DNA of 43,092 nt from Bacilli bacterium. GTDB lineage: Bacteria > Bacillota_I > Bacilli_A > RFN20 > CAG-826. A program made the position numbers and the translations under genes. Shown here piece by piece: positions 2,927 to 25,822 of this stretch. The notes under the pieces were generated by a model, which did no database searches, was not told the DNA's origin, and was given only the letters and a program-made list of their open reading frames with translations. Each line of letters opens with the position of its first letter. The stretch's first letter is position 1. The DNA is taken from positions 1-43,092 of the forward strand of contig JBAYBO010000001.1 of the NCBI GenBank assembly GCA_041669225.1, given 5' to 3'.

Positions 2927-3772
2927 CTATGCTTCTATATGAATAGAAAGAATCCGATCCTTGTTATTAATATCTTTTGTTATTTCCCATTTCGCCTTGG
3001 GAATCATCATCTGAATAAGGGTTTCAATATTGTCCTTAATGTCATGGCCAATTTCAAAAACCATGGTAAATGGATAATTACATATCGCTTGATACATCAT
3101 AAAAATTTTTTTATAAAAACTTAATTCGCCGCTATCAACAAGAGCGAGGTATGGTTCATACTTGATAACACTCGGTTCAATCTCCATGAGGTTTGTAATA
3201 TAAGGGGGATTCGAAACAAGAACATCGATTTTAATATTTTGAAAAAGAAGTGGCTCTAAGACATCGCCCTGAATAAGTGAAATTTCTTCATTGTGCAATT
3301 TTGCATTTTCACTCGTTACTTCCAAGGCGTCTTTTGAAACATCGGTTGCGACTATTTTCGCTTTCGGAAAGGCTTTTTTTAGGGTGATAGCGATTATCCC
3401 AGAACCGGTACCAATATCGGCGATAGTCAGGTTATCGGGATTGTGACTCTGCTTAATGATTTGAATTGCTTTGCTTACAACTTCTTCGGTTTCCATTCGC
3501 GGAATTAAAACGCGGTTATCGACAAAGAAGTCGCGCTTCAAAAAACACGCTTTTTGAATAATATATTGATATGGTTCTCCATTTAGAAAACGTGCCAAAT
3601 AGGCTCTAAAAAGAGGCAAATCCCTGATTTCTTCATTTTTTTTCATATAAAAATCAGACATCTCATCATGTCCTTGAATTTCACAAATCAAAGCTCTTAA
3701 AGCGATTTCGTTCTTACGAGCAAACTCGGATTCACGAACAACGTTTTCGTATAAATCATAAATGCTCGGCAT
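2927..3772 (-). CDS. prmC: Release-factor glutamine N5-methyltransferase
   Basis: SAM-binding DIGTGSG and catalytic NPPY (VSNPPYI). It lies directly downstream of prfA with a 1-nt gap. Confidence 0.9.
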   Translation of the reverse strand: MPSIYDLYENVVRESEFARKNEIALRALICEIQGHDEMSDFYMKKNEEIRDLPLFRAYLARFLNGEPYQYIIQKACFLKRDFFVDNRVLIPRMETEEVVSKAIQIIKQSHNPDNLTIADIGTGSGIIAITLKKAFPKAKIVATDVSKDALEVTSENAKLHNEEISLIQGDVLEPLLFQNIKIDVLVSNPPYITNLMEIEPSVIKYEPYLALVDSGELSFYKKIFMMYQAICNYPFTMVFEIGHDIKDNIETLIQMMIPKAKWEITKDINNKDRILSIHIEA

Positions 3773-3773
3773 A

Positions 3774-4847
3774 TTATTCGCCCAACATTTTTTGTTGCTG
3801 GTCGTAATGAACTAAAGCATCGACAACCTCATCGAGGTCGCCTTCCATTATTCGATCAAGTTTTTGTAAATTAAGTGAAATGCGATGATCAGTCACACGG
3901 TTTTGCGGATAATTGTACGTTCTGATTTTTTCACTTCTTTCACCGGTTCCGACTTTTAGTTTACGTTCAGTACCCATTTTTTCTTCTTGCTCAGCCTGCA
4001 AGTTACTAAGAATTTTTGCTCTTAACATGCGCATTGCTATTTCACGATTTTGCATTTGCGATTTTTCTGTTTGACACGAAACAACAATACCGGATGGAAC
4101 GTGGGTAATGCGAACAGCGCTTTCGGTTTTATTAACGTTTTGACCACCCGCTCCTTGAGAACGATATGTATCGACTTCCAAATCACTTGCATTAATCACG
4201 ACTTCGATTTCATCTGCTTCAGGAATAACGAGGACTGTCGACGTTGACGTATGAATACGTCCAGAGGCTTCGGTGCGAGGAATTCTTTGAACGCGATGAG
4301 CACCGCTTTCAAATTTTAATTTAGAGTATACGCCGGCACCTTTAATCATAAAAGAAACAAGCGAATAACCACCGGCACCCGATGAGTTCTCATCAATCAT
4401 TTGGACTTTCCAGTTATTTCGTTCGGCGTACCTTGTGTACATGCGAAATAAATCACCGGCAAAAATATTTGCTTCATCGCCACCAACCGCTCCACGAATT
4501 TCGACGATGATATTTTTGTCATCGTTTGGGTCCTTCGGCACAAGCATTAGATGTAACTCTTCTTCAATTGCTTCAAGTTTGTGATTGAGTGTATGAAGTT
4601 CTTCTTTGCCGAGTTCTGCTAATTCATCATCGCTATCATCAATCATAGCGAGAGCTTCTCCGCGCTGGTTTAAAAACTTGGCATATTCATCATATTTATC
4701 GCAAATATCAGCTATGTTTGAGCGTTCTTTTGAAAGGCTTTTGAAATGCGAAATATCCCGCATAACATATTCATTAGCAAGTTCTTCATCAATTTCTGCT
4801 AAACGCTTCTTAGTCGCGTCTAGACGTTTTATCATGCTATCTTCCAT
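3774..4847 (-). CDS. prfA: Peptide chain release factor 1
   Basis: GGQ motif (GAGGQNVNK), a PxT-type tripeptide (PRT) and RF-1 family sequence throughout. A GAGGAG SD lies 5-6 nt before ATG 4847. The ORF track starts at GTG 4853. Confidence 0.93.
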   Translation of the reverse strand: MEDSMIKRLDATKKRLAEIDEELANEYVMRDISHFKSLSKERSNIADICDKYDEYAKFLNQRGEALAMIDDSDDELAELGKEELHTLNHKLEAIEEELHLMLVPKDPNDDKNIIVEIRGAVGGDEANIFAGDLFRMYTRYAERNNWKVQMIDENSSGAGGYSLVSFMIKGAGVYSKLKFESGAHRVQRIPRTEASGRIHTSTSTVLVIPEADEIEVVINASDLEVDTYRSQGAGGQNVNKTESAVRITHVPSGIVVSCQTEKSQMQNREIAMRMLRAKILSNLQAEQEEKMGTERKLKVGTGERSEKIRTYNYPQNRVTDHRISLNLQKLDRIMEGDLDEVVDALVHYDQQQKMLGE

Positions 4848-4946
4848 ATACACTCCTCAGCAGCGGTGTGATTATACCATATCCAACCTTTTCTATAAAG
4901 TGTTAGTTTTTTGGCTTAATATTAATATTAAAACGTGATTAATGTC

Positions 4947-4975
4947 TTTAATCAAACTGTATAAATATGTATAAT
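4947..4975 (+). promoter_or_regulatory. Candidate sigma-A promoter for dnaX operon
   Basis: Perfect -10 TATAAT at 4970-4975 with a weak -35 (TTTAAT/TTAATC) at 16-17 nt spacing. The AGGA SD and ATG 4994 follow. Confidence 0.3.
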
Positions 4976-4993
4976 TACCAATAGGATAAAGAA

Positions 4994-6808
4994 ATGGCAT
5001 ATAAAGCTCTCTACAGGACTTATCGCCCCAAAACCTTTTTAGAGGTGGCGGGCCAAAAACACATCGTTAAGACGATTGAAAATGCATTGGCTAACAACAA
5101 GATCGCTCATGCATATCTTTTTTGCGGTCCGCGCGGCACGGGCAAGACTTCCATGGCAAAACTTTTTGCTAAGTCTTTAAACTGTGAGGAAAGCTTTGGC
5201 CATCAATGCAATCAATGTGGCAATTGTCTCAGCGTTAACGATGGCTCTCATCCTGATGTCATTGAAATCGACGCCGCCAGCAACAATGGTGTTGAAGAAG
5301 TTCGCGACTTAATTGAAAAAGTCAAATACTTACCAATCAAAGGTAAATACAAAGTATATATTATCGACGAGGTTCATATGATGACCAGTGGAGCCTTTAA
5401 TGCTTTACTCAAAACGCTTGAAGAACCACCCGCTCATGTTGTTTTTATTCTAGCAACAACCGAGCCACATAAAGTCATACCAACAATTGTTTCGCGCTGC
5501 CAGCGCTATGACTTCACCAAAGTCGAAGATGACGCTATCCGCGAAAAAATGGTGGAAATACTTAATCTTGAGGAAATCAATTATGATATTCCGGCGATTA
5601 ATGCAATTATCGACCTCGCTGATGGTGGGGTTCGCGATGCGCTTTCAATACTTGAACACGTTCTAGCCTACGCAGGGAACACAATTAAAGAAAAAGACGT
5701 GTTTGATCTTTTTGGACTTGCCTCCACTAAGGAAAAATTAGATTTAGTTAAGGCTATTGCCAAAGGCGATGTTAAAGATGTTTTGAAAAGAATGGAATCA
5801 TTTATCGCTTCTGGCATCGATATCAAAAGGTTGACGACAAACCTTCTCGACGTTTTAAAAGATGCCCTTATTTATAGCAGAACCGAAGAACAAATTCTTC
5901 TTTCGGTTTTGACTGAAAAAGATGTTTTATCATTAATCGAATTAATAAGTGTTGATCGTTTAAACGAAATGATTGAAATACTGCTTAAAGCCCAAAATGA
6001 CTTTAAGGTTGTTTCAAACATTCGTTCGCTGTTCGAGTTAGTTTTACTTCGCCTTACAACTTCCTCAGTTAAAAAAGTGCCAATTGATGATGATACTGTT
6101 CATGAAATTAGAAAACCTGACAATAAGTCGATTGTTAAGCAAGAAGCCAAAAAGGAAGATTCAATTATAAAAAAGATTGAACCAGTCACAATCGATACAC
6201 TACAACCTGAGATAGAAAGACTAATTGAACAACCAAAAGCGATTGAGCCCGCACCACTTGTCGAAACGAATGGTTCGACAGTTCCATCGTGGCTTCTTGA
6301 AGACGAGATGGCAATTGACGAAAAAAATAGACCAGCAATCGAAGTCAAAAGCAAAGACAAGAATCAACCAAGCCAGTGCACAATTAATGTCGCTGGTGAG
6401 AAAAATACGCTTGATGATGAGACGCTGATAAAGATTATGGTTCTCGGAGATAAAGAGGAACGACAAAATATTAGCAAAAAATGGGATGAATTCAATGGTT
6501 TAGTCGCTCATCCCCGTTATGGACTAGTCGCATCTCTTCTTAAAGATGGAAGACCATATATCGTCGCTAAAAATGTTCTCGTTCTTGAATACGACTTCGA
6601 TTGTCTAGCAGAAAGAATTAACATTACGACCAACCAAGAAGCGATAGTCGAATTAATGAAGGGCATAGTCGGTCGCGAATTATTTGTTTATGCTATTGTA
6701 AGAAGCGAAGCTTTACGATTACAAAAATCATTCTTTAACCTTAGACAACTTAATCGCTTGCCAAAAGCAAAAGATATCCAATTAGACCTTAAAGGAGCAA
6801 CTATATGA
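4994..6808 (+). CDS. dnaX: DNA polymerase III subunit tau/gamma
   Basis: AAA+ clamp-loader N-terminus (GPRGTGKTS), zinc module CEESFGHQCNQCGNC, SRC motif (VSRCQRYDF), and a low-complexity linker followed by the C-terminal tau domain. Confidence 0.95.
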   Translation: MAYKALYRTYRPKTFLEVAGQKHIVKTIENALANNKIAHAYLFCGPRGTGKTSMAKLFAKSLNCEESFGHQCNQCGNCLSVNDGSHPDVIEIDAASNNGVEEVRDLIEKVKYLPIKGKYKVYIIDEVHMMTSGAFNALLKTLEEPPAHVVFILATTEPHKVIPTIVSRCQRYDFTKVEDDAIREKMVEILNLEEINYDIPAINAIIDLADGGVRDALSILEHVLAYAGNTIKEKDVFDLFGLASTKEKLDLVKAIAKGDVKDVLKRMESFIASGIDIKRLTTNLLDVLKDALIYSRTEEQILLSVLTEKDVLSLIELISVDRLNEMIEILLKAQNDFKVVSNIRSLFELVLLRLTTSSVKKVPIDDDTVHEIRKPDNKSIVKQEAKKEDSIIKKIEPVTIDTLQPEIERLIEQPKAIEPAPLVETNGSTVPSWLLEDEMAIDEKNRPAIEVKSKDKNQPSQCTINVAGEKNTLDDETLIKIMVLGDKEERQNISKKWDEFNGLVAHPRYGLVASLLKDGRPYIVAKNVLVLEYDFDCLAERINITTNQEAIVELMKGIVGRELFVYAIVRSEALRLQKSFFNLRQLNRLPKAKDIQLDLKGATI

Positions 6809-7717: not shown

Positions 7718-8353
7718 ATGTTTATTACATTTGAAGGTCCAGAAGGTAGCGGTAAAACTAGTGTCGCTAACGAAATAGTCCGCATTCTTATATCCAAAGG
7801 ATATGATGTTTTGTATACTCGCGAACCAGGTGGAACGCCAATCGCCGAAGAAATTCGCAATATCATTCTCGATAAAAAGAATACTGCGCTTGACGCTCGG
7901 GCTGAGGCTTTACTTTATGCCGCTAGCCGCCGACAGCACCTTGTTGAAAAGGTTTGGCCGGCTCTTAACGAAGGTAAAATTGTTATTAGTGATCGTTTCC
8001 TCGATTCATCTTTAGCCTATCAAGGCGCTGGGCGAAATATCGGCGTTGACAATGTTTTAAATATCAATCTATTTGCCACCGAAGGCACATATCCGGATTT
8101 AACCTTGCTTTTTGACATAACACCCGAAAAGGGTTTGGAGCGCATTGCCATCAATAAAAAGAGAGAGGTTAACCGTTTAGATCTCGAGGCCCTTGATTTT
8201 CATCGTCAGGTTCGTGAAGCTTTTCTCGAACTGGCCAAAAAATATCAGGATCGCTATGTTATAATCGATGCTTCAAAAACCCTTCCGGAAGTTGTTGGGG
8301 CGGCTCTAAACGTGATTCAAAGTCGCTTGGAGCAAAAGCATGCTCGCCTCTGA
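7718..8353 (+). CDS. tmk: Thymidylate kinase
   Basis: P-loop FEGPEGSGKTS and the DRF/LID region (ISDRFLDSSLAYQG). An AGGAGGAA SD lies upstream. Confidence 0.93.
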   Translation: MFITFEGPEGSGKTSVANEIVRILISKGYDVLYTREPGGTPIAEEIRNIILDKKNTALDARAEALLYAASRRQHLVEKVWPALNEGKIVISDRFLDSSLAYQGAGRNIGVDNVLNINLFATEGTYPDLTLLFDITPEKGLERIAINKKREVNRLDLEALDFHRQVREAFLELAKKYQDRYVIIDASKTLPEVVGAALNVIQSRLEQKHARL

Positions 8354-9320
8354 ATACATTAAAAAATACCAAAGCGTTTTATATAAAGTTTTTTCAAACG
8401 CCATCCAAACCGATAAGCTGACCCACGCTTATCTTCTTTCTGGTGAGCCTGGTACGCCCCTTAAGGATGTCGCTTTATATCTTGCTAAATCACTCGTTTG
8501 CGATATGCCGGAACCTCTTGCGTGTGAAAGATGTTTAACATGTATTCGCATTGAAGACGGAAGTTTTGCGGACTTAATGATATACGATGGCCAAGAATCA
8601 ACGATTAAGAAGAACGATGTCAGCGAAATAACTTCTAACTTTGAAAAAACGGCTCTCGAAGCCAAAGGCATCATGATTTATATCCTTCATCTTGTGGAAA
8701 ATATGACGAGCGAGGCCGTTAATTCCTTGCTTAAGTTTCTTGAAGAGCCGGGTAAAAATGTCTATGCTTTCTTAACAACGGAAAATGAGGCCAAGGTTCT
8801 TCCAACCATCATTTCTCGGACGCAAGTACTACATTTAAAAACGATTGATAAACAACAACTTATTGAAGAGTCTATCAAGCAAGGTTGTCCTCGCGAAGAT
8901 GCCGAAATTCTCAGTTTCTTTTTAAATGATCCCACAACGATTCTCAAAACCTTTCAAAGTCAGGAATATATCGATGCGAAAACTGCTTTGATAAAACAAC
9001 TCGAGGCTTTGCGATATACAAAAGAAGAAGCGATTTTTGTCTCGCAAAAAGACATATCGCCAACCATCAGGAGTAAAGAAGCGGCTCGCTTTTACCTCGA
9101 TATGTTAACGATTGTTTTTCAAGACTTGCTGAATATCCGTGTTAACAATCGCATAACTTTAACTAGTTATGATAGTATATTACGTGAGTTAGCCAGGCGC
9201 CTGCCTCATCTTGATGAAACTTTAATCGAAATTATGACCTCACGTGGCAAGCTCGATTTAAATGTTAATGTGGCCCTGCTACTTGATCATGTCATCATTG
9301 CCATTACGAAGGAGAAATAA
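8340..9320 (+). CDS. holB: DNA polymerase III subunit delta-prime
   Basis: Clamp-loader fold with a degenerate P-loop (YLLSGEPGT, no Lys), zinc module CERCLTC and SRT motif (ISRTQVL). It overlaps the tmk 3' end by 14 nt. Confidence 0.88.
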   Translation: MLASEYIKKYQSVLYKVFSNAIQTDKLTHAYLLSGEPGTPLKDVALYLAKSLVCDMPEPLACERCLTCIRIEDGSFADLMIYDGQESTIKKNDVSEITSNFEKTALEAKGIMIYILHLVENMTSEAVNSLLKFLEEPGKNVYAFLTTENEAKVLPTIISRTQVLHLKTIDKQQLIEESIKQGCPREDAEILSFFLNDPTTILKTFQSQEYIDAKTALIKQLEALRYTKEEAIFVSQKDISPTIRSKEAARFYLDMLTIVFQDLLNIRVNNRITLTSYDSILRELARRLPHLDETLIEIMTSRGKLDLNVNVALLLDHVIIAITKEK

Positions 9321-10996: not shown

Positions 10997-11014
10997 CGCC
11001 CTAAGGGCGTTTTT
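10996..11014 (+). terminator. Rho-independent terminator of the dnaX...rsmI unit
   Basis: ACGCCC-TAA-GGGCGT hairpin (10996-11010) followed by TTTT. It overlaps the stop codons of both convergent genes (rsmI TAA 10994-10996; yfhO-like TAG 11001-11003). Confidence 0.7.
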
Positions 11015-14000
11015 CATTTTCTAAATTTTCGAGTTTGATTTTCTTTTTTAAATCAAGAAAGGCGCCCAATCCAATTGCGCCCCCAAAGATTACGAAGCCG
11101 CTAAAAGCAATAACCAAACCTTCATTAAAATAAGGAGTGACGTATTTCATCTCGTAAGAGGTCGCGCCAGCTTTGGATACAAATCCGACAAAACCACCTT
11201 GGGCGTTATATGTTTTTAACTGCTCCTTATCGCCGTTTACGCCTTTTGCAAATACTTTCCAGCCATCACCGTAAGTAACTTGCGTGACGATAAAACGCTC
11301 CATGGGGAAATCACTTTTAAACGAGAAGTAATTAATGTCATAAATAACATCAGTTAAAGGATACTCGTTCAAAACCGCGAGCTTATTCAGGATATGATCA
11401 TATGTTTCAACATAAATCTCGCTATAGTTATAAACAACTCCATTCCCGGCTGGGACAATAATAACCTTTTTGACTGGTTCACTCGCGTAAAAGCCACGGA
11501 AATACTTTTTATCAGCTTCGTTGTTATTATGATAATCAGTTGTAATTACGCGACTTGTTGTCGGATCAGGGTTGCCTTCTTCATCGATGCCATCACCAAT
11601 TAAATAAATTCTTCCCCGGTAATCGGTATTTGGCATTTTAAGTGGATATTTAATCATGAAGTAAGAGGGCTCGGTTGTCAGGTAGCTTCCGCTTGAAGGA
11701 GTTAAGACAAGCTGCGTTTTATCACCGACGACGCGGTCTGCCGCTTCTGAAAAGGGGAAAGTTTCGTAATCATCCAAATAACGATCCGGTTGGCGGGGTT
11801 GGAAAAAGAAATCGGTATCGTACAAGGTGCGATTAATGCTAAGTTTACTTGCTTCCAAAGTCGGTGCGTTTTTCGGCAAAAAATGCGGATGCTCGGATAT
11901 TATTTCTAAGACGTCTTCGTCTTCTAAAATAGCTCCTTTTAAGTAGGCTTCCTCATTGCGAATAACATCGAAAGAGTGGTTCCCACTCGTATGAAAGTCG
12001 TTAAAGATGCGATTACCGCAACTTCGTTTGTAATATAAAGTGTCGAAACTAAAACCGAGTTCGACATGATTATCATTTTGGTATAGACGATAACCATCAC
12101 CGTCATTTTCATCATCGATACGCGTATATCCAAGGGGGGCGTTCATATCAATGACATAACTTTTCTGAACATCATTTTCCGTATAATAAAAAGTTGTTTC
12201 CGTTTCTTTAAATAAATAATATTTAACACCGAGAAAAGCATCGAGATTGTAGCGCTTTTCCTGCGCGCCACCAATCCAAGAAGTGTCGTGTTTAAAAATA
12301 TGGGACATTCTAACAAAATCGATGACATCATAGTTATAAAGAGAGTGAAATGTTGAGGTACCATTAAAGTTTTCGACGTTGGGAAGGTTATCATTACTTA
12401 GATAAGCTCTTGTTGATTGAAGACGGAAAAAACCATCGTCGCTTTCATTAACTTCTTGAATGATTTTTGTTTCGGTAACATAGTTATTAAACCCTCCACT
12501 AAGACTTCGTTCGTAGGAAATAACGCCATGACCGACCATAACCATATTACCCATCACAACTGCTTCAAGAGCAAGAGTGACGGTTAGTATTTTCGTAAGC
12601 CGTTCTTTTTTCCAGTTAAAGAAAAGAATAAGCCCAGTAATCATGCAGACGACTATTTGGTAAAAGAAAATCCAATACTCGCCTTCGTAGGGTCGTATTT
12701 GTTCAGAAACAATTTTCGAAACAAGACTATAAGCAACTAACATTAAGGTCAATGTCGAAATAAACGACACTAAGGCGTAGCCGGCTGGTATTTCTTTTCG
12801 TTCATCGAAATTTAGAGCCACATAAACAAGTATCGATACAACGGCAATGATTTGCCAACGGCTGTAAGGAACGGTAAAAACGTGCATGGCGTGATAGAAG
12901 AAAGGTGTAAATAAAGCAAAAATGAAAAATCCAATCGGAATAAAATGCGAAAACTTTTTCTTGCGAATCGAATTAAAAACGGAAACGAAAAGCATCATAA
13001 TGCTTGGCGTAAAAATGAAAATACTTCCAGCGAAGTTTTCAAAAGAAGTCACGGGAATCAAATTAACATATCGCCCAGAGATTGTCGGAAATAAAAACGA
13101 AACCAGCGGATATAAGACGCGGTATTCGGCGATTTCACTCTTATTATTTTTGCCCCAGTAATTAAGAATTAAATATTTAAGTTCGTCCCAATCGCGATTA
13201 ATAAAGGCCTCACGAAGGTCAAGAAGATAAGTTGCATCTTCAGCTCGAGGCGCTTGCATGGCGTTGATATAATTGGGAATCAAAATCCAGGCCGCCACCA
13301 TTAAGGCCACGGCAAAAGCGCCGACACCCCAACCAAGAATAATCCAGTTTTCTTTGCGTGTGTGTTGTTTGCGAAGCTGAAAAAAGCGAAATAGAGCATA
13401 TGCCACACCATAAAAACATATTGTGATAAGCAGGAAATAATGAGTAATCGCTATCAAAAATAAGCCAACAATCAAGGTATATGGCTTTTCGCGGTGAAGG
13501 ACCTTTTCGATGCCTAATAAAACAAGCGGGAAAAAAGCAATAACTTCAAAAAAGTTATTAAACCATAAATAATAAGCAATCCAGCCACAGAAGGCATAGG
13601 CAATTGCAAATAGGCGAGCCGTTCCTTCTTTGACGTCAAAGTGTTTTAAATAGAGGCGAAAGAAAAGACCGCCGACAACCATTCTGGCAATCATCGTTAC
13701 AGCGAGAAGATGGGGAATGAAATAACGAGGAAATAAAAGCATCGGAAGCATAAATGGCGAGAAGAGACCATAATAAGTGTTTGAGGTAATATTATCTGCG
13801 CCCAAAAAGGTATTGTGATCCCACATGACAAATTTACCGGTTTTAAAAAATGTCCACCAATCATCATAAAAGTTATAATGAAAGGCGACATATTGCTGTG
13901 TGTAGTCGCCGCCTAAAGGAACGCTGAAGTACTGCGTTAAAAGCGAATAACCATAAAAGCCAAGCCCGATAGCAACAAGAAACAATGTATAATAAAAAAG

Positions 14001-14072
14001 CGAGCCCCGGTCTTTTAGATAAGGCATTTTATTTAAAATGAATTGTTTAAACTGATACCACTTGCGCGCCAT
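11001..14072 (-). CDS. YfhO-family polytopic membrane protein (putative GT-C glycosyltransferase)
   Basis: 1023 aa. The N-terminal half is multi-TM with YfhO-like motifs (PLGGDYTQQY, HNTFLGADN, YGLFSPF). A large extracytoplasmic domain and a C-terminal TM anchor follow. Confidence 0.75.
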   Translation of the reverse strand: MARKWYQFKQFILNKMPYLKDRGSLFYYTLFLVAIGLGFYGYSLLTQYFSVPLGGDYTQQYVAFHYNFYDDWWTFFKTGKFVMWDHNTFLGADNITSNTYYGLFSPFMLPMLLFPRYFIPHLLAVTMIARMVVGGLFFRLYLKHFDVKEGTARLFAIAYAFCGWIAYYLWFNNFFEVIAFFPLVLLGIEKVLHREKPYTLIVGLFLIAITHYFLLITICFYGVAYALFRFFQLRKQHTRKENWIILGWGVGAFAVALMVAAWILIPNYINAMQAPRAEDATYLLDLREAFINRDWDELKYLILNYWGKNNKSEIAEYRVLYPLVSFLFPTISGRYVNLIPVTSFENFAGSIFIFTPSIMMLFVSVFNSIRKKKFSHFIPIGFFIFALFTPFFYHAMHVFTVPYSRWQIIAVVSILVYVALNFDERKEIPAGYALVSFISTLTLMLVAYSLVSKIVSEQIRPYEGEYWIFFYQIVVCMITGLILFFNWKKERLTKILTVTLALEAVVMGNMVMVGHGVISYERSLSGGFNNYVTETKIIQEVNESDDGFFRLQSTRAYLSNDNLPNVENFNGTSTFHSLYNYDVIDFVRMSHIFKHDTSWIGGAQEKRYNLDAFLGVKYYLFKETETTFYYTENDVQKSYVIDMNAPLGYTRIDDENDGDGYRLYQNDNHVELGFSFDTLYYKRSCGNRIFNDFHTSGNHSFDVIRNEEAYLKGAILEDEDVLEIISEHPHFLPKNAPTLEASKLSINRTLYDTDFFFQPRQPDRYLDDYETFPFSEAADRVVGDKTQLVLTPSSGSYLTTEPSYFMIKYPLKMPNTDYRGRIYLIGDGIDEEGNPDPTTSRVITTDYHNNNEADKKYFRGFYASEPVKKVIIVPAGNGVVYNYSEIYVETYDHILNKLAVLNEYPLTDVIYDINYFSFKSDFPMERFIVTQVTYGDGWKVFAKGVNGDKEQLKTYNAQGGFVGFVSKAGATSYEMKYVTPYFNEGLVIAFSGFVIFGGAIGLGAFLDLKKKIKLENLENEKRP

Positions 14073-14128: not shown

Positions 14129-14644
14129 ATGAAGATTTTGGAAGCGATAGAAAAACGACAATCAATTCGCGAGTTCACCGAAGAATTAGTGAATGAAGAA
14201 CATCAAAAAATTATTTTAGATGCAGCATATAATGCTCCAATTGGCCGAGCTGCTTATCACCGCTACGAATTAGTCATTATTAATCAAAAAGAAAAAATCG
14301 AGATTCTTGCCAATCTAATAATCGATGCCGCCAGCTTGTTGAAGCATCCGTTTTTCCATGCGCCACTTGTTATTTTCGTCACTGGAAAAAGCAATCGCGA
14401 ACGTCTTGATGGCTGTGACACCGGTTGTTTGATTGAAAACATGATGCTGGCTGCCACCAGTTTGGGGTTAGGTTCATGTTTTCTTTACACCATCTCCGAA
14501 ATCATGAATGGCCAGCCTAAACTTCTTGATACTTTAAAACTTAGCGATGAATACCGCGTCATGTCGGCAGTCGTCATCGGCCACCCTAAACAAAAAGACC
14601 TGACCAATAAGGTCAGGCCCGGAATAAAAACTAGAATTCTTTAA
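14129..14644 (+). CDS. Nitroreductase family protein
   Basis: 171 aa. N-terminus RQSIREFT and overall nitroreductase-fold pattern. An AAGGAGA SD lies upstream. Confidence 0.75.
   Translation: MKILEAIEKRQSIREFTEELVNEEHQKIILDAAYNAPIGRAAYHRYELVIINQKEKIEILANLIIDAASLLKHPFFHAPLVIFVTGKSNRERLDGCDTGCLIENMMLAATSLGLGSCFLYTISEIMNGQPKLLDTLKLSDEYRVMSAVVIGHPKQKDLTNKVRPGIKTRIL
14586..14617 (-). terminator. Candidate Rho-independent terminator of the DUF1538/PII operon, embedded in the 3' end of the convergent nitroreductase CDS
   Basis: On the minus strand, a CCTGACC-TTATT-GGTCAGG hairpin (14599-14617) is followed by TCTTTTTGTTT (14586-14598). It begins 34 nt downstream of the PII stop codon. Confidence 0.5.
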
Positions 14645-14650
14645 TTAATT

Positions 14651-14953
14651 TCAAAGACCGACAGTATGACTGACAGGCATCGAAAAAGCGATGCCTTTTC
14701 CATTTGTTTCAAGACCCGCAGCTTTATTAATGGCCTTTAAAACCGCTTCTTTAATTTCCTCTTCGACGAGGATGATCACGATTTCTTTTTCTGGGGAAAT
14801 GGAGAAACCAAAAAACTTTTCCATATCGGGATTCCCGGTTCCGCGACCGTGGAAAATCGTTCCACCTCGCGCCCCTTCTTTTCGGGCGGCATCCATCACT
14901 AAATCAGTGAAACCATTATTGACAATACAAATGATTACTTCGTGTTTTCCCAT
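14651..14953 (-). CDS. PII-like signal-transduction protein (short T-loop)
   Basis: 100 aa with a beta-alpha-beta PII-type core. A GRGTG segment replaces the long T-loop, and the C-terminal GKGIAFSMPV is equivalent to the GlnB GDGKIFV region. A GGAGA SD lies upstream, and the gene starts 2 nt after the upstream stop. Confidence 0.75.
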   Translation of the reverse strand: MGKHEVIICIVNNGFTDLVMDAARKEGARGGTIFHGRGTGNPDMEKFFGFSISPEKEIVIILVEEEIKEAVLKAINKAAGLETNGKGIAFSMPVSHTVGL

Positions 14954-14955
14954 AA

Positions 14956-15378
14956 TTAATCTCCTATCGTTCTTGTGTTAGACAAATATTTGTAAATTGA
15001 TAAACCTATAACCGAGGATATTTCGATTGAAAAAGCTATTCCTTTGCTTTCTTTTTTAAAGAAAACAGCAATATCCTTTTTTAATGCTTCTATTTTATCG
15101 GCTTTTACTATAGAAAAAACGATATCTTTCCGCACATCGCTAAGACCGAGCAAGTCATAAATTTCTCTTGTGCCCGTCCCTCTTCCACGAGTGATGATGC
15201 CAAGCCCGCTTTCATGTGCTTTCAAAATTCTCAAAACCTCTCTAGCGTGATTTTGATTAACAATCGTGATAAAAAATTTAAGTCGCGAAACTGAATTCGT
15301 CTTATCGTAAGGTTTGAACTTTGCCGGCGGATTAGATGCTGGTAAGGTCGTAATGTTTTCTATTTTTCTCTTGCTCAT
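14956..15378 (-). CDS. PII-like signal-transduction protein with ~35-aa N-terminal extension
   Basis: 140 aa and a paralogue of 14651..14953 (GRGTGT, SKGIAFSIEISSV). Its ATG overlaps the upstream TGA (ATGA at 15375-15378). Confidence 0.7.
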   Translation of the reverse strand: MSKRKIENITTLPASNPPAKFKPYDKTNSVSRLKFFITIVNQNHAREVLRILKAHESGLGIITRGRGTGTREIYDLLGLSDVRKDIVFSIVKADKIEALKKDIAVFFKKESKGIAFSIEISSVIGLSIYKYLSNTRTIGD

Positions 15379-16922
15379 TGCTCACCCTCAATTAAGTGAA
15401 TAATTTGATCGTCGTTTTCTTCAAAGAAACGAACTCTCGCCAATTTGATACGTCTTTGTTCTTTTATGGTCACATAAAGACCTAGTGCTTGAATCGTAAT
15501 AATAGGCATCATTGTTACTAAAGCGTTAACTCCGAAGGCATAAGTCATTATATCTTGTCCCGAGCTTTGATAAAAGGTGATGGCTGCTCCAATCGCAAAA
15601 GGCAAAACAAATGAGGAGTTCATCGGTCCGCTTGTAATGCGACCGGCATCAAAGGCCATCGCCGAATAAAATTTTGGGACAAAAAAGGCCAAAACTAAAG
15701 CAACAAAATATCCGCCAATAACAAACCAAAGAATGGGTATGCCTAACACAAGCCGCATCATCGCAAACGACATCGCAAGACCGGCACCAATCGCAATCGC
15801 AATCAAGACGGCAACTTTGCGAATCGCACCTTCAGTAATATTTTCTATTTGCGAGACTAAAACATGAATTGCTGGTTCAAGAAGAACGGCAGCCATTCCA
15901 ATAATCGCACCAAAAAGAATAACTAATCCTGATCCTCCAATAGCCATTTTACTTCCAATAATCCGACTAATTGGCAAAAAACCTAAATTTACTGCTGACA
16001 GAAAAATCACAAGGCCTAAATACGTATAAACAAGACCGGAAATTATTCTAATCAACACTTTAAGAGGTAGGTGTATAGCTATTGCTTGATAAATGAAAAA
16101 GAATGCAGTAATCGGCAAAATCGCGATTGCAACATTTAATACACTTGTCACCAAAATCCCGCCAAAAGACTGTGCGGCTTCCACTTCGTAAATAAAGGGA
16201 ATATCATCTATGAAAAAGGACATGATTAACACAACGAGGACTGGACCCAACGATGTAAGGGCGATTAAGCCAAAAGAATCCTCGTCAGTCTTTTTGCCAG
16301 AACGCGTCGTGGCAATACCAATGCCAAGGGCAAGAATGAACGGAACGGTAATCGTTCCTGCCGATGCTCCGCCAATATCAAAGGATAGAGGTATAAATGA
16401 AGGATTAACATAGTTAATACCAAGAGCTAAAGCAAATAAAAGACCATATAGCATGATGAGCCATATGATCAAGTTTTTTTGAAAGAGAATGCGCAATATT
16501 CCAACGACCATAAAGACACCAAAACCAACACCAATCAAAATAATAATGAGCCATTCATTGCTAATAAACGGCAACCATTGATTGCCAAGAGGAACTTGAC
16601 CAACCAGAACTCTTAAATCTGGCTCGGCAATAACGATGAAGGCACCAAGCAAAAAGAAAAGAAAAACCATTAATCCGATTTTTCTTTGACTAGTAATAGA
16701 GGCACCAATATATTCTCCGATTGGTGACATGGCCATATCCGTGCCAATCGTAAAAAATCCCATTCCTAAGGCGACCATGACGGCCGAGACAGAAAAAATA
16801 ATGACATCTTTATTGTTATCAATTCGAGCTAGACCACTAAAATGAATAATCAAAACGATCACGACCATCGGAAGCGTCGAGACAAAAGCCGATTTGAATT
16901 TGTGAAGCCAACTAAAAGACAT
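15375..16922 (-). CDS. Polytopic membrane protein with internal duplication (DUF1538-like putative transporter)
   Basis: 515 aa and highly hydrophobic. The two halves are homologous (AEPDLRVLVGQV vs LEPAIHVLVSQI; FDIGGASAGTITVPFILALGIGIA vs FDAGRITSGPMNSSFVLPFAIGAA). The family name is from memory and needs HMM confirmation. Confidence 0.7.
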   Translation of the reverse strand: MSFSWLHKFKSAFVSTLPMVVIVLIIHFSGLARIDNNKDVIIFSVSAVMVALGMGFFTIGTDMAMSPIGEYIGASITSQRKIGLMVFLFFLLGAFIVIAEPDLRVLVGQVPLGNQWLPFISNEWLIIILIGVGFGVFMVVGILRILFQKNLIIWLIMLYGLLFALALGINYVNPSFIPLSFDIGGASAGTITVPFILALGIGIATTRSGKKTDEDSFGLIALTSLGPVLVVLIMSFFIDDIPFIYEVEAAQSFGGILVTSVLNVAIAILPITAFFFIYQAIAIHLPLKVLIRIISGLVYTYLGLVIFLSAVNLGFLPISRIIGSKMAIGGSGLVILFGAIIGMAAVLLEPAIHVLVSQIENITEGAIRKVAVLIAIAIGAGLAMSFAMMRLVLGIPILWFVIGGYFVALVLAFFVPKFYSAMAFDAGRITSGPMNSSFVLPFAIGAAITFYQSSGQDIMTYAFGVNALVTMMPIITIQALGLYVTIKEQRRIKLARVRFFEENDDQIIHLIEGEQ

Positions 16923-16950: not shown

Positions 16951-16980
16951 ATCTTAACATGATAATCAAATGTAGGTCAA
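16951..16980 (-). promoter_or_regulatory. Candidate promoter of the DUF1538/PII operon
   Basis: On the minus strand, TTGACC (16980-16975), an 18-nt spacer, then TGtTAAGAT extended -10 (16959-16951). AAGGAA lies 14 nt before ATG 16922. Confidence 0.4.
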
Positions 16981-22347: not shown

Positions 22348-23208
22348 TTACTTTTTAGAATCATCATATTTAATGATGCTTTGGTATAAATCGGGTCGTC
22401 GATCGCGAAAAACACCCCAGGCAATACGTTTCTTATCGATTAATTCTAGATTGAATTCAGCAACGGCGATATCTTCTTCAGTACGCGAAAGTTCAGCGAC
22501 AAGATTGCCATCTTCATCAGCAATAAAGCTACTGCCAAAAAAAGTCATACTGGAATTCTCATCGCTTTCGGTGCCGACGCGGTTCGAAGCAAGAACAGGA
22601 ATAATATTTGCGGCAGCGTGTCCCTTCATTGTGTTTTGCCAATGATCCTTTGAATCTTTTGGAAGAACTGGCTCGCTGCCGATGGCGGTTGGATAAACAA
22701 TCAATTGCGCGCCCAGCAACGCGAGGGAACGGGCAACTTCAGGAAACCACTGATCCCAACAAATCCCCACACCGACACGGCCGTATTTTGTCTTGAATAC
22801 TTTAAAACCGGTATCTCCTGGCGAGAAGTAAAACTTTTCTTCATAGCATTCACCAGTGGGGATATGAGATTTGCGATAAAGGCCAAGATTATCACCATCC
22901 GCATCAATCATAACCAAAGAATTAAAATGAACATTCCCGGCTTTTTCAAAGAAAGATAAAGGCAAGACAACATTAAGTTCTTTGGCTAGTTTCTGAAACC
23001 TTGAAATTGTTAGTGATGAGTCTAATTCTTCAGATAAATCAAAGTAATCATACTTTTCTTTTTGACAAAAATATGGTGTTTTAAATAGTTCAGGAAGCAG
23101 AATGACTTGTGCGCCTTTTGCAGCGGCAATTCGCACCATTTGTTCGGCTTTTGCAAGATTTTCGTCAATCTTCCAAGACATGCGAAATTGAGTAATGGCT
23201 ACTTTCAT
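22348..23208 (-). CDS. aguB: N-carbamoylputrescine amidase (nitrilase superfamily)
   Basis: LLPELFKTPYFCQ motif and catalytic Cys context GICWDQWFPE. The AAGGAGAA SD lies inside the last codons of the upstream gene, and the ATG is 2 nt after its stop. Confidence 0.85.
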   Translation of the reverse strand: MKVAITQFRMSWKIDENLAKAEQMVRIAAAKGAQVILLPELFKTPYFCQKEKYDYFDLSEELDSSLTISRFQKLAKELNVVLPLSFFEKAGNVHFNSLVMIDADGDNLGLYRKSHIPTGECYEEKFYFSPGDTGFKVFKTKYGRVGVGICWDQWFPEVARSLALLGAQLIVYPTAIGSEPVLPKDSKDHWQNTMKGHAAANIIPVLASNRVGTESDENSSMTFFGSSFIADEDGNLVAELSRTEEDIAVAEFNLELIDKKRIAWGVFRDRRPDLYQSIIKYDDSKK

Positions 23209-23209
23209 C

Positions 23210-25822
23210 TTAATTATTCTCCTTTTTAGTTTCAGGTATTTGCATAGTTATACAGTGAACGTTTCCACCGCCAAGCAGAATTTCGCGAGAAAATACTTGA
23301 ATAATCTTTTTATCCGGATATAGTTCGACAAATTGACTATAAGCTAGTTCGTCTTCTTTGACCCCAAAAGCCGGAAGAATGACAAAATTCTTTCCTTGAT
23401 AATAATTAATATAGGAGGCTGCTAAACGCATATTCGGTTCCCTTTTTTTAGCATTAGAGCGCGAACCGCGAATGCCTTTGGCTTCTTCCTTTGTCATATA
23501 CATCGGATGCGGAAGTCTAACTTTGACAATTTCAAACGGATTACCATCGGCATCCGTTTCGTTTTTCAGCACTTTATAGGCTGCTTGTGAATATCGATAT
23601 TGCGGATCACTGCGAACGGTTGTCCAAGCCAAAGCAACAACGCCAGGACGAATAAAGCACGCCATATTATCGACGTGTTCGCTCGTTTCATCTTGGTAAA
23701 TACCATTTTTCAGCCAAATAACCTTGCTTATACCAAGATTGGTTTTGAGTGTCTCTTCGATTTCTTGCTTATTCATATGGGGGTTGCGTCCCTTAGAAAG
23801 GAGGCACGCCTCAGTCACCAAGCATGTCCCAAGCCCATCGACATGAATACTTCCGCCTTCAAGAACAAAATCATCAATGTAATAACTATCGAGATTAAGT
23901 TTCTTTGATAAGAGGCTAGAAAGTCGATCATCGTCCAAATAGTTTGAGTACAGTCCGCCATGCTCCGTGCTCCAGGCATTAAAACGGAAGTCAACGGATC
24001 TTAGTTTAGAACCTTTTTTAACAAAAATCGGCGAATTGTCACGCGCCCAAGCATCGTTATACTTTATTTTGATAACGTCGACGTTCTCGATATTTGAAAA
24101 TTCGCCGGATGCGACATCATAAATGCTCGGATGGATTCCAACGAGCACGGGTTCAAACTGGGCGATAGCGCGAACGACATCTTTGTAAGCCTCGCGGGCC
24201 GGTTTGGCTCCATCTCTCCATGTATCTTTGCGAAATGGTAGAAGGATGAAGGTCGCCTGATGGGAGTCTCCTTCAAACGGCATCGAATAACCATCATTAT
24301 GAGGAGTTGTGATGCGCTTTGAGGAATAATCAGTATAAGCCTTTTGATAAGACGAGAATTTCTTCCAACGATCTTTATCGACAACATTAACGGTCCCATC
24401 ACTATAATCACTAATTAATGTGATTCCTGTTTGTTTATATGTCTTTATCCGTTCAATTAAATCGCTAGTAAAAATTTCTCCTGGAATAATCAAAGGAATG
24501 CCCGGAGGATATATCATAATTGATTCTTTCGATATTTCGTTCGCTGCATTCATAATTGAGATGCGTTTGCTAGGTGCATAAAAAGCCGAACGGGGTCTTA
24601 CTAATAAATATGGAAAGCCAACACTGAAGGAGTGACGAGGATAAGTAATTTTACGATTATAATGCTCACGGCTAATGTCTTTTAAAGCCGCAAAAAGATG
24701 CCTCAGGTGTTCTTTTTTTGTGCCGATGGCAAGAATTCCCAAAACAACGTATGTCTCGGCTAATTCAACCTGAATTCGATACTTCTCCTTAAGAAGATAA
24801 TATAAATCGAAGCCACTTAAATCGAGATGATCAAGTTCGAGAACAAGCTTGGTTTCATCATAATCGTAACAACCTTTTTGAAGAAAATGTTCGCGTCCGC
24901 GCGAAATGAAGCCCTTGATTTTTTCTATTTGTTCACGAGCATATTTGGCCAGTTCAAGAACGTTGTCCATTGCTTCCTGACCTTTGGTGGCGGCAAAATG
25001 ACGGGCTGCGTCAATACTAGCAATTAAAATGTTAGAAGGCGAAGTAGTGCTAATAATGCTCAAGGATTTTTGAACTTCACTTGGCGAAACGCGCTCACCT
25101 TGAAGGAGAAGGACGCTTGACTGTGTTAATGAACCACCTGTCTTGTGAAACGAAACACTGGAGAGGTCAGCACCACACTCCATCGCTGATAGAGGACCAT
25201 TTTTACTAAAGTAATAATGGGCGCCGTGGGCTTCATCAACTAAAACCGACACATTATGCGCATGGGCGAAATCGGTGATTTCCTTTAAATCATTTACTGC
25301 CCCAAAATATGTTGGGTTTATAACAAGCAGCGCTTTGGCGCTTGGGTAACGAATTATCGCTCGTTTATAATCAGCAACACTCGGCTGATTGGCAATTTCG
25401 AGCTGCCGATCGATTTTTGGCATTACATAAACGGGGATCGAACCAGATAAGACAAGCGCACTAATGATTGATTTATGAACATTACGAGGAAGAATAATCT
25501 TATCTTTGGCCTTGCACACCGACATAATCATGGCGATGATGCCACTCGTCGTACCATTCACCAAAAAGAAACTGTGATCAGCGCCCGCAAAATCAGCCAT
25601 AAGCTCTTGGGCTTGGGCAATAACACCAGTCGGGTGTTGCAATGAATCAAGTCCGATTGGAGCATTAATATCACTTTGAAAAGTTTTTCCGCCAAGGAAA
25701 TCTTTTAGTTTATTTTCAACATTGCCCATATGGTGTCCAGGGACATCAAAAGGCGATATTTTTTCGTTAACATATTTGATTAGCGCATCAAGAAACGGTG
25801 TCTGATTTTGGTTTAATTTCAT
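23210..25822 (-). CDS. speA-aguA: Fusion protein: Orn/Lys/Arg-decarboxylase-family (SpeA-type, PLP) N-terminal domain + agmatine deiminase C-terminal domain
   Basis: 870 aa. Residues 1 to ~490 are the decarboxylase: FDVPGHHMG, PLP-Lys in SFHKTGGSLTQSS, and the C-terminal PPGIPLIIPGE. Residues ~505-870 are the deiminase: GYSMPFEGDSHQATF..., AWARDNSPIF, and catalytic Cys in GGGNVHCITMQIP. There is a single uninterrupted frame. Confidence 0.85.
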   Translation of the reverse strand: MKLNQNQTPFLDALIKYVNEKISPFDVPGHHMGNVENKLKDFLGGKTFQSDINAPIGLDSLQHPTGVIAQAQELMADFAGADHSFFLVNGTTSGIIAMIMSVCKAKDKIILPRNVHKSIISALVLSGSIPVYVMPKIDRQLEIANQPSVADYKRAIIRYPSAKALLVINPTYFGAVNDLKEITDFAHAHNVSVLVDEAHGAHYYFSKNGPLSAMECGADLSSVSFHKTGGSLTQSSVLLLQGERVSPSEVQKSLSIISTTSPSNILIASIDAARHFAATKGQEAMDNVLELAKYAREQIEKIKGFISRGREHFLQKGCYDYDETKLVLELDHLDLSGFDLYYLLKEKYRIQVELAETYVVLGILAIGTKKEHLRHLFAALKDISREHYNRKITYPRHSFSVGFPYLLVRPRSAFYAPSKRISIMNAANEISKESIMIYPPGIPLIIPGEIFTSDLIERIKTYKQTGITLISDYSDGTVNVVDKDRWKKFSSYQKAYTDYSSKRITTPHNDGYSMPFEGDSHQATFILLPFRKDTWRDGAKPAREAYKDVVRAIAQFEPVLVGIHPSIYDVASGEFSNIENVDVIKIKYNDAWARDNSPIFVKKGSKLRSVDFRFNAWSTEHGGLYSNYLDDDRLSSLLSKKLNLDSYYIDDFVLEGGSIHVDGLGTCLVTEACLLSKGRNPHMNKQEIEETLKTNLGISKVIWLKNGIYQDETSEHVDNMACFIRPGVVALAWTTVRSDPQYRYSQAAYKVLKNETDADGNPFEIVKVRLPHPMYMTKEEAKGIRGSRSNAKKREPNMRLAASYINYYQGKNFVILPAFGVKEDELAYSQFVELYPDKKIIQVFSREILLGGGNVHCITMQIPETKKENN

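Follow-up and report, generated by a model that had tools for sequence, protein, structure and literature searches.

A conserved module of a DUF1538 membrane protein and two non-identical PII-like proteins: a candidate PII-controlled secondary transporter

In a 43,092-nucleotide stretch of DNA from a Bacilli bacterium of the GTDB lineage CAG-826 (GenBank assembly GCA_041669225.1, contig JBAYBO010000001.1, positions 1 to 43,092; hereafter ‘the window’, with coordinates counted from its first letter), three closely packed minus-strand genes encode a 515-residue membrane protein of the DUF1538 family (15375..16922), then two small, non-identical proteins of the PII fold: the 140-residue PII-A (14956..15378) and the 100-residue PII-B (14651..14953), all as defined in the list of open reading frames (ORFs). 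Our preferred reading, to which we attach a probability of roughly 0.55, is that the DUF1538 protein is a secondary transporter of the cation/proton type whose activity is governed by a heteromeric PII pair bound to it. The three genes would then encode a single membrane complex, with PII-A and PII-B located in the cytoplasm and in direct contact with the transporter, in a 1:1:1 ratio of gene products; occupancy of a ligand site would alter the grip of the pair on the cytoplasmic face and so switch transport on or off, much as for GlnK-AmtB or SbtB-SbtA.

The genes keep company well beyond this one genome. With each GTDB species represented by one genome, a scan found 80 DUF1538 loci at 38–45% identity, hosted mostly by gut Firmicutes with a few labelled Bacteroidales, Fibrobacter or Sphaerochaetaceae, and at all 80 a PII-A-type and then a PII-B-type ORF lie downstream on the same strand as the transporter; the trio singled out from sequence in an earlier reading of this DNA (the original prediction) is thus conserved as a unit. 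At 63 of these loci the two PIIs are separate genes, at 14 (plus one probable) they form a single A–B tandem protein, and two loci are cut by contig ends. Firmicutes-like loci also turn up in metagenome-assembled genomes (MAGs) labelled Bacteroidales, Bacteroides, Alistipes shahii, Fibrobacter and Sphaerochaetaceae (L023, L030, L041, L045, L077, L080 and L062 in our numbering), and these could represent either horizontal transfer or mis-binned contigs.

Other arrangements of the same parts exist. Split DUF1538 pairs followed by one PII gene are found on plasmids of Methylocystis and Chelativorans (Alphaproteobacteria); Paraclostridium and Peptoclostridium combine a fused transporter with a 222-residue tandem PII, and Bacillus dakarensis has split transporter genes with two PII genes. 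A metagenome scan seeded with split-type subunits yielded 80 further loci; adding these to the 80 from genomes and to seven on plasmids or contigs gives a set of 167 (some redundant). Here the fused transporter stands with separate A and B genes at 65 loci and with a tandem PII at 45; the split transporter stands with one PII at 24, with a tandem PII at 18 and with two PIIs at 5. Three further loci have a fused transporter and a single A-type ORF, PII-B having been lost at the contig end, and two scored as fused with one B-type PII (L093 and L095) are split loci mis-scored through ORF artefacts. Within 2 kb downstream a PII gene is absent from just 5 of the 167: three of these are contig ends, one (L128) has a fragmented B subunit with a PII ORF 2.3 kb off, and one (L100, considered below) is genuine. 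An additional upstream PII ORF in L097 and L098 proved to be a canonical GlnB-like gene some 3 kb away, unrelated to the module. Where the transporter is split, the UmpA-type subunit precedes the UmpB-type in 21 of 21 cases. The DUF1538–PII link is near-universal, not absolute.

Natural gene fusions speak to how the parts may be arranged. In an exhaustive search by HMMER, the PII-A profile matched 919 clusters (50% identity) at E ≤ 1e-10, and about 47 of the best 150 matches to this profile are two-domain A–B tandems; a word-indexed protein search returned no A–B fusion proteins. In a protein of 654 residues (P0332), a complete transporter, a linker of ~35 residues and a PII-A domain follow one another in one chain, the identical gene being present in two separately assembled samples (L168 3001-5329 and L169 3001-5329), each time ahead of a gene for a 120-residue PF00543 protein. 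There are therefore three kinds of fusion—half A with half B, transporter with PII-A, and PII-A with PII-B—which, read as a chain, argue for one physical complex of transporter, PII-A and PII-B. They would bring the C-terminus of the transporter close to the N-terminus of PII-A, and the C-terminus of PII-A close to the N-terminus of PII-B; the N-terminal extension of PII-A, disordered in our model, looks like the remnant of a tether. The fusions also imply gene products in a 1:1:1 ratio, and one A per B is a poor fit to a single heterotrimer of the 2:1 kind seen for NifI, so that the hetero-trimers originally envisaged now appear doubtful and an A3B3 or comparable assembly is suggested. That the adjacency is coincidental, or an artefact of annotation, is effectively refuted by the same order and strand at every one of the 80 genome loci, by five architectures spread across phyla and by the fusions themselves.

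The membrane protein has a sole match in Pfam, to PF07556 (DUF1538; 341.4 bits against a cut-off of 22.6, E = 2e-102, in two stretches), just as had been guessed, and belongs to neither the Amt nor the SbtA family. Its two halves are indeed homologous (25% identity across 191 residues, E = 1e-9) and each carries both of the motifs quoted for them previously, albeit with a dot-spacing that was slightly off: AEPDLRVLVGQV / LEPAIHVLVSQI for the first and FDIGGASAG...P / FDAGRITSGP for the second. The NCBIfam model for UmpA aligns to residues 19–236 (108.7 bits against an equivalog cut-off of 490) and that for UmpB to residues 257–490 (122.3 bits against 500). By these profile scores, the protein is a member of the DUF1538 family rather than an UmpAB equivalog, equivalent to an UmpA-like half fused to an UmpB-like half. 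UmpAB of Halomonas zhaodongensis is a heterodimeric Na+(Li+,K+)/H+ antiporter, as judged by complementation of E. coli KNabc and by assays in everted vesicles, with seven transmembrane (TM) segments predicted per subunit (PMC5484666); the earlier statement that DUF1538 has no experimentally assigned function is accordingly outdated, although the reported antiporter is a distant relative. UmpAB and the window protein have in common PF07556, the UmpA-then-UmpB order and 7 TM segments per half; they differ in that the halves of UmpAB are separate, whereas those of the window protein are fused and followed by an extra conserved cytoplasmic tail.

An AlphaFold2 (AF2) model of the transporter, built with 76 homologues, is confident overall (predicted local distance difference test score, pLDDT, 86.2; predicted TM-score, pTM, 0.85), each repeat comprising five long helices and two helix-break-helix elements. 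Repeat 1 (residues 1–237; 16212..16922, minus strand) and repeat 2 (residues 253–487; 15462..16166, minus strand) each have seven predicted TM segments, the second set in the opposite orientation; both are delimited from the model and the alignment of the halves, with a charge count in addition for repeat 2. The helix breaks of repeat 1 coincide with AEPD (99–102) and FDxGG (181–185), invariant columns in the 76-sequence alignment, and those of repeat 2 with the invariant motifs EPA (349–351) and FDxG (424–427). Over the same 76 sequences lysine plus arginine (K+R) number 20.4 on predicted inside segments versus 4.3 outside, with homologous loops of the two repeats showing opposite bias; the pattern lends support to a 7+7 TM inverted repeat whose N- and C-termini are both cytoplasmic. 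A PDB sequence search with the protein gave nothing even at E ≤ 10 and a Foldseek comparison of the model with the PDB nothing at E ≤ 1e-3 (TM-scores of 0.1–0.2, at which level the listed pyrophosphatase, GltPh and ClC entries are noise); together these indicate that no relative of the fold has been solved, though all-helical membrane proteins are a class for which Foldseek has lower sensitivity.

Five conserved carboxylates—E100, D102 and D182 in repeat 1, E349 and D425 in repeat 2—are membrane-embedded at the helix breaks in the model, where they most plausibly form a cation/proton site; with the precedent of UmpAB, they make a cation/proton exchanger the most likely identity for this secondary transporter. 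The same PII-regulated architecture might instead serve another substrate, such as ammonium, a divalent metal, bicarbonate, a polyamine or some other small solute tied to carbon, nitrogen or energy status; a possibility we take seriously, but judge to be clearly the less probable. In its favour, kinship to UmpAB is only distant, PII-family proteins classically govern nitrogen- and carbon-linked transport (as is also set out in the paper on the NifI structure), and neither a neighbouring gene nor a riboswitch points to a substrate: Rfam gave no match anywhere in the window, and nothing for the module ahead of DUF1538 in 31 related loci whose leaders are long, a glmS ribozyme and a T-box in those leaders being rejected as belonging to neighbouring genes. 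Saying this, embedded carboxylates favour cations over anions, and the sole assayed member of the family is a monovalent cation/H+ antiporter. Circumstantially, DUF1538 also keeps company with cation-transport genes in the prediction of pH: of the Pfam features, it is one of those that best predict the optimal pH for growth, as are Mrp, Kdp, Trk and Kup (PMC13255231).

As was proposed at the outset, the two small proteins are PII-like paralogues (32% identity, E = 5e-11; hhalign probability 99% and E = 8.9e-18 between their family profiles). PII-B passes the Pfam P-II model (PF00543; 33.3 bits against a cut-off of 25), and among PDB entries its family profile matches 32 chains of canonical PII, NifI1 from a methanogen nitrogenase-PII supercomplex (9p1x_H, E = 2e-9) being the best. 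PII-A has no Pfam match, but its AF2 model (pLDDT 74) shows a beta-alpha-beta-beta-alpha-beta core at residues 33–119, with a short helix in the T-loop, preceded by a disordered segment (residues 1–32) and followed by a C-terminal helix. The top 50 Foldseek matches of this model are all of the PII superfamily or contain a PII-like domain (probability 1.00), and include SbtB, GlnK1, PstA, PotN, CPII and a NIF3-related protein; SbtB and GlnK1 are the best of these, with TMt values of 0.6–0.8 for SbtB, GlnK1, PstA and CPII. Both proteins thus have the PII fold, PII-A by model and PII-B by profile. In public annotation, relatives of PII-A are called ‘hypothetical protein’ and those of PII-B ‘P-II family nitrogen regulator’.

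Within PII-A (14956..15378, minus strand), the putative N-terminal tether of ~30–32 residues is conserved in sequence only among close relatives; beyond it lie the core, with GRGTG at 65–69, and a C-terminal YKYLSN helix. PII-B (14651..14953, minus strand) carries GARGGT (27–32), GRGTG (36–40), PEKE (54–57) and GKGIAF (85–90). To say that GRGTG replaces the T-loop, as the original prediction did, is to overstate the case: in alignments with GlnB, GlnK and NifI1 the loop comes out 5 residues short of its GlnB/GlnK counterparts and close to that of NifI1 in length, with GRGTG at its base and a B-loop of canonical length. The position of Tyr51 in GlnB/GlnK is here occupied by Phe or Ile, and the loop does not reach the ~20 residues of the canonical T-loop with its modifiable Tyr51/Ser49. 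All PIIs linked to DUF1538, including the single PIIs beside split transporters, share GA+GGT, GRGxG, PEKE and GxG(I/L)(A/G)F, and on these motifs make up a distinct subfamily; PII-A is its divergent member, having lost GA+GGT and gained the conserved YKYLSN helix.

At the canonical PII site the glycines equivalent to G27, G35, G37, G87 and G89 are retained, as are T29 and the K58 equivalent, and PII-B has invariant G27, G30, T32, R37, G38 and G87 around the inter-subunit ligand cleft. PII-B, which keeps the PII glycine scaffold together with the K58 equivalent, would be the probable ligand-sensing subunit, and since the glycine-lined cleft is retained an adenine-nucleotide-type effector is plausible. 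The effector is probably something other than the classical MgATP/2-oxoglutarate pair. PII-A, the degenerate paralogue, would be the probable adaptor, sitting beside the acidic IIxF/L motif in the C-terminal tail of the transporter.

That tail (residues 488–515; 15378..15461, minus strand; defined from the model, alignment and charge topology) is placed in the cytoplasm by the K+R bias given above, and consists of a basic stretch and then an acidic DDQIIH (residues 504–509; 15396-15413). It is of low confidence in the AF2 model and so likely disordered, yet I507 and I508 are invariant. Across relatives the motif takes the form of an acidic (I/V)(I/V)x(F/L/M/V), DDQIIH being the version in the window. 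Counted with a relaxed pattern (a first, too strict, having been replaced), it occurs at 92 of the 97 non-identical loci that encode an A-type PII domain, four of the five misses being near-variants, whereas none of the 38 loci whose PIIs are B-only has it (Fisher p = 1.8e-28, phylogeny not corrected for). Some clades with a fused transporter lack the tail, Peptostreptococcales (L083/L084) being an example. We regard the tail as a lead for a PII-A docking peptide.

Several observations weigh against the picture of a PII-controlled cation/proton transporter. The correlation of tail with PII-A is confounded with clade, in that it also separates fused from split transporters. The function of UmpAB comes from one heterologous-expression study; and its transfer is weak, since scores against the UmpA/UmpB models, which have cut-offs of 490–500, run to just 85–132 bits for the window protein and every relative sampled, and among the split-type loci no UmpAB equivalog was found beside a PII (10 representatives, all ≤132 bits). 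R38, Q39, K90 (now Ile/Leu), R101 and R103 of the canonical ATP-phosphate/2-oxoglutarate site are absent, and the loss of these basic residues makes the canonical MgATP/2-oxoglutarate mode improbable. Lastly, L100 is a split pair with no PII gene in at least 800 nt downstream. This locus (3264-5495) is a high-GC (guanine plus cytosine) pair of 231 + 231 residues, and the related L097, with the same upstream gene, retains a 122-residue PII; at L100 the PII partner appears to have been lost naturally.

Some of these same facts bear on whether the PII-like proteins might be obligate structural subunits, a cap for assembly or stability, in which effector binding has been lost from PII-A and perhaps from PII-B. 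The missing phosphate- and 2-oxoglutarate-binding side chains would fit, as would the strong degeneracy of PII-A, to the point of evading Pfam, and its covalent fusion to the transporter in P0332. We nevertheless consider this unlikely: the invariant residues of PII-B surround precisely the ligand cleft, the split pair at L100 has no PII, and UmpAB needed no PII partner to function in E. coli, its antiport having been measured with no PII gene co-expressed in a paper that mentions no such partner (PMC5484666). The last of these is also consistent with PII proteins that are regulatory rather than catalytic.

Roles might also be reversed, with the membrane protein an anchor or ‘transceptor’ that sequesters the PII pair according to substrate flux and the pair controlling some other cytoplasmic target. 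PII biology offers a precedent, sequestration of GlnK by AmtB controlling DraG, and the pair could have targets invisible to synteny. This we hold to be very unlikely, however, as the 80 genome loci show no further gene conserved alongside the trio—the candidates were antisense shadow ORFs, generic ABC transporters and rluA (the last in only 9 close relatives), none a conserved partner—and a PII-A fused to its transporter could not be released.

If the DUF1538 protein is indeed a transporter under PII control, its nearest functional analogies would be those PII-family proteins that plug or lock transporters encoded adjacent to them, GlnK on AmtB and SbtB on SbtA. The likeness lies in a small PII-family gene co-transcribed with that of a transporter (here, by prediction); the differences in an unrelated membrane partner without a fold match in the PDB, and in two non-identical PIIs with a shorter T-loop and without the canonical ATP/2-oxoglutarate side chains. 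With NifI1,2 the module shares a pair of adjacent paralogous PII genes, whose acting together is here suggested by the fusions, and, with NifI1 itself, a similarly short T-loop and the best PDB match of the PII-B profile; unlike the module, NifI1,2 targets nitrogenase, forms a 2:1 heterotrimer and keeps its ADP/2-oxoglutarate residues, and no nif genes were found near the trio in the window annotation or the survey of conserved neighbours. PstA/DarA and PotN have a PII-like fold (PstA and PotN being among the Foldseek matches of PII-A), but PstA/DarA combines a long B-loop with a short T-loop, where the B-loop here is of canonical length, and profile matches to PstA/YaaQ are not significant (E = 0.2–0.8); PotN partners the ATPase of an ABC transporter, in a polyamine ABC transporter operon, rather than a DUF1538 protein. 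By analogy, then, the module would work like GlnK-AmtB/SbtB-SbtA and resembles NifI1,2, but its membrane family and unmatched fold, its T-loop and ligand residues, and the stoichiometry implied by its fusions place it with none of them.

One further locus deserves mention with regard to the effector. On a Bacillus dakarensis contig (L085 1-6369) the order DUF1538, DUF1538, P-II, P-II, with split transporter genes, lies directly 3' of ybbR(cdaR)-glmM-glmS, a glmS ribozyme being present at 1854-2023 and the upstream genes forming the tail of a cyclic di-AMP (c-di-AMP) cyclase operon. From this single observation, which may be chance, c-di-AMP is a candidate ligand. In the window itself (7718-9320, plus strand) tmk stands directly before holB; in Bacillus subtilis the gene for the c-di-AMP-binding PII-like protein DarA (darA/yaaQ) sits between the two, and with no gene intervening, darA is absent at that position here. 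A fuller version of the preferred reading would have the degenerate PII-A tethered to the transporter and recognising its acidic IIxF/L tail, and PII-B reading a non-canonical effector (c-di-AMP or another adenine nucleotide), with both gating a 7+7 cation/proton exchanger as a second widespread class of heteromeric PII after NifI1,2; in this degree of detail the proposal is tentative, and rather doubtful as a whole.

At the level of bases, the genes are packed as tightly as first described. The TGA of the DUF1538 gene overlaps the ATG of PII-A as ATGA at 15375-15378, the junction reading GAGGGTGAGCAATGA with a Shine-Dalgarno-like GAGG upstream of the PII-A start, and this overlap translationally couples the two genes in the window. 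The PII-A/PII-B junction reads GGAGATTAATTATG, with a gap of 2 nt and a GGAGA of PII-B's own; both overlap and gap were confirmed base by base. Within the 99-bp gap 5' of the DUF1538 gene a consensus scan and reading of the sequence located a promoter-like site, as a pattern match only (TTGACC, an 18-nt spacer with TG, TAAGAT; 16951..16980, minus strand), and the same approach found a terminator-like hairpin with a 10-bp stem and T-run (14596..14620, minus strand) 31 nt past the PII-B stop codon. With this site upstream, hairpin downstream and tight packing between, the trio looks like its own transcription unit. The hairpin falls inside the last ~50 nt of a convergent plus-strand nitroreductase ORF (14129-14644), and the two transcription units would consequently overlap at their 3' ends (14596-14644).

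Two other regions of the window drew our attention. At 22348-25822 (minus strand) an ORF of 870 residues encodes an Orn/Lys/Arg decarboxylase (OKR_DC_1) and an agmatine deiminase (PAD_porph) in a single chain, next to a CN_hydrolase gene of the N-carbamoylputrescine amidase-like type; judged from domain content, the set suggests a route from arginine to putrescine in which two enzymes are, unusually, fused. At 11001-14072 (minus strand) lies a gene for a very long, 1023-residue membrane protein of the YfhO family; its best stretch of match to the Pfam model, which has 835 positions, extends no further than the first ~280 residues, and the large C-terminal portion has no assignment.

Public annotation already places ‘DUF1538’ beside ‘P-II family nitrogen regulator’, and our search of the literature on DUF1538, PF07556, UmpAB and PII-like proteins with transporters found no paper describing or testing a DUF1538–PII link; publications on Borrelia BB0017 and on Methanococcus concern other families. 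PII proteins rank among the signal transducers of widest distribution, but to our knowledge only a handful of their transporter targets are understood (AmtB, SbtA, NrtABCD and PotABCD), and we know of no heteromeric PII other than NifI1,2. Species-level loci with the module described here number well over a hundred and are not confined to gut Firmicutes, and on comparative grounds the case for a genuine, widespread module is strong. Were it worked out, it would add a new class of PII target and test how common heteromeric PII complexes are; it would also give a first structure-function handle on the DUF1538/UmpAB transporters, a family without a solved structure that may bear on how anaerobes keep pH and salt in balance.

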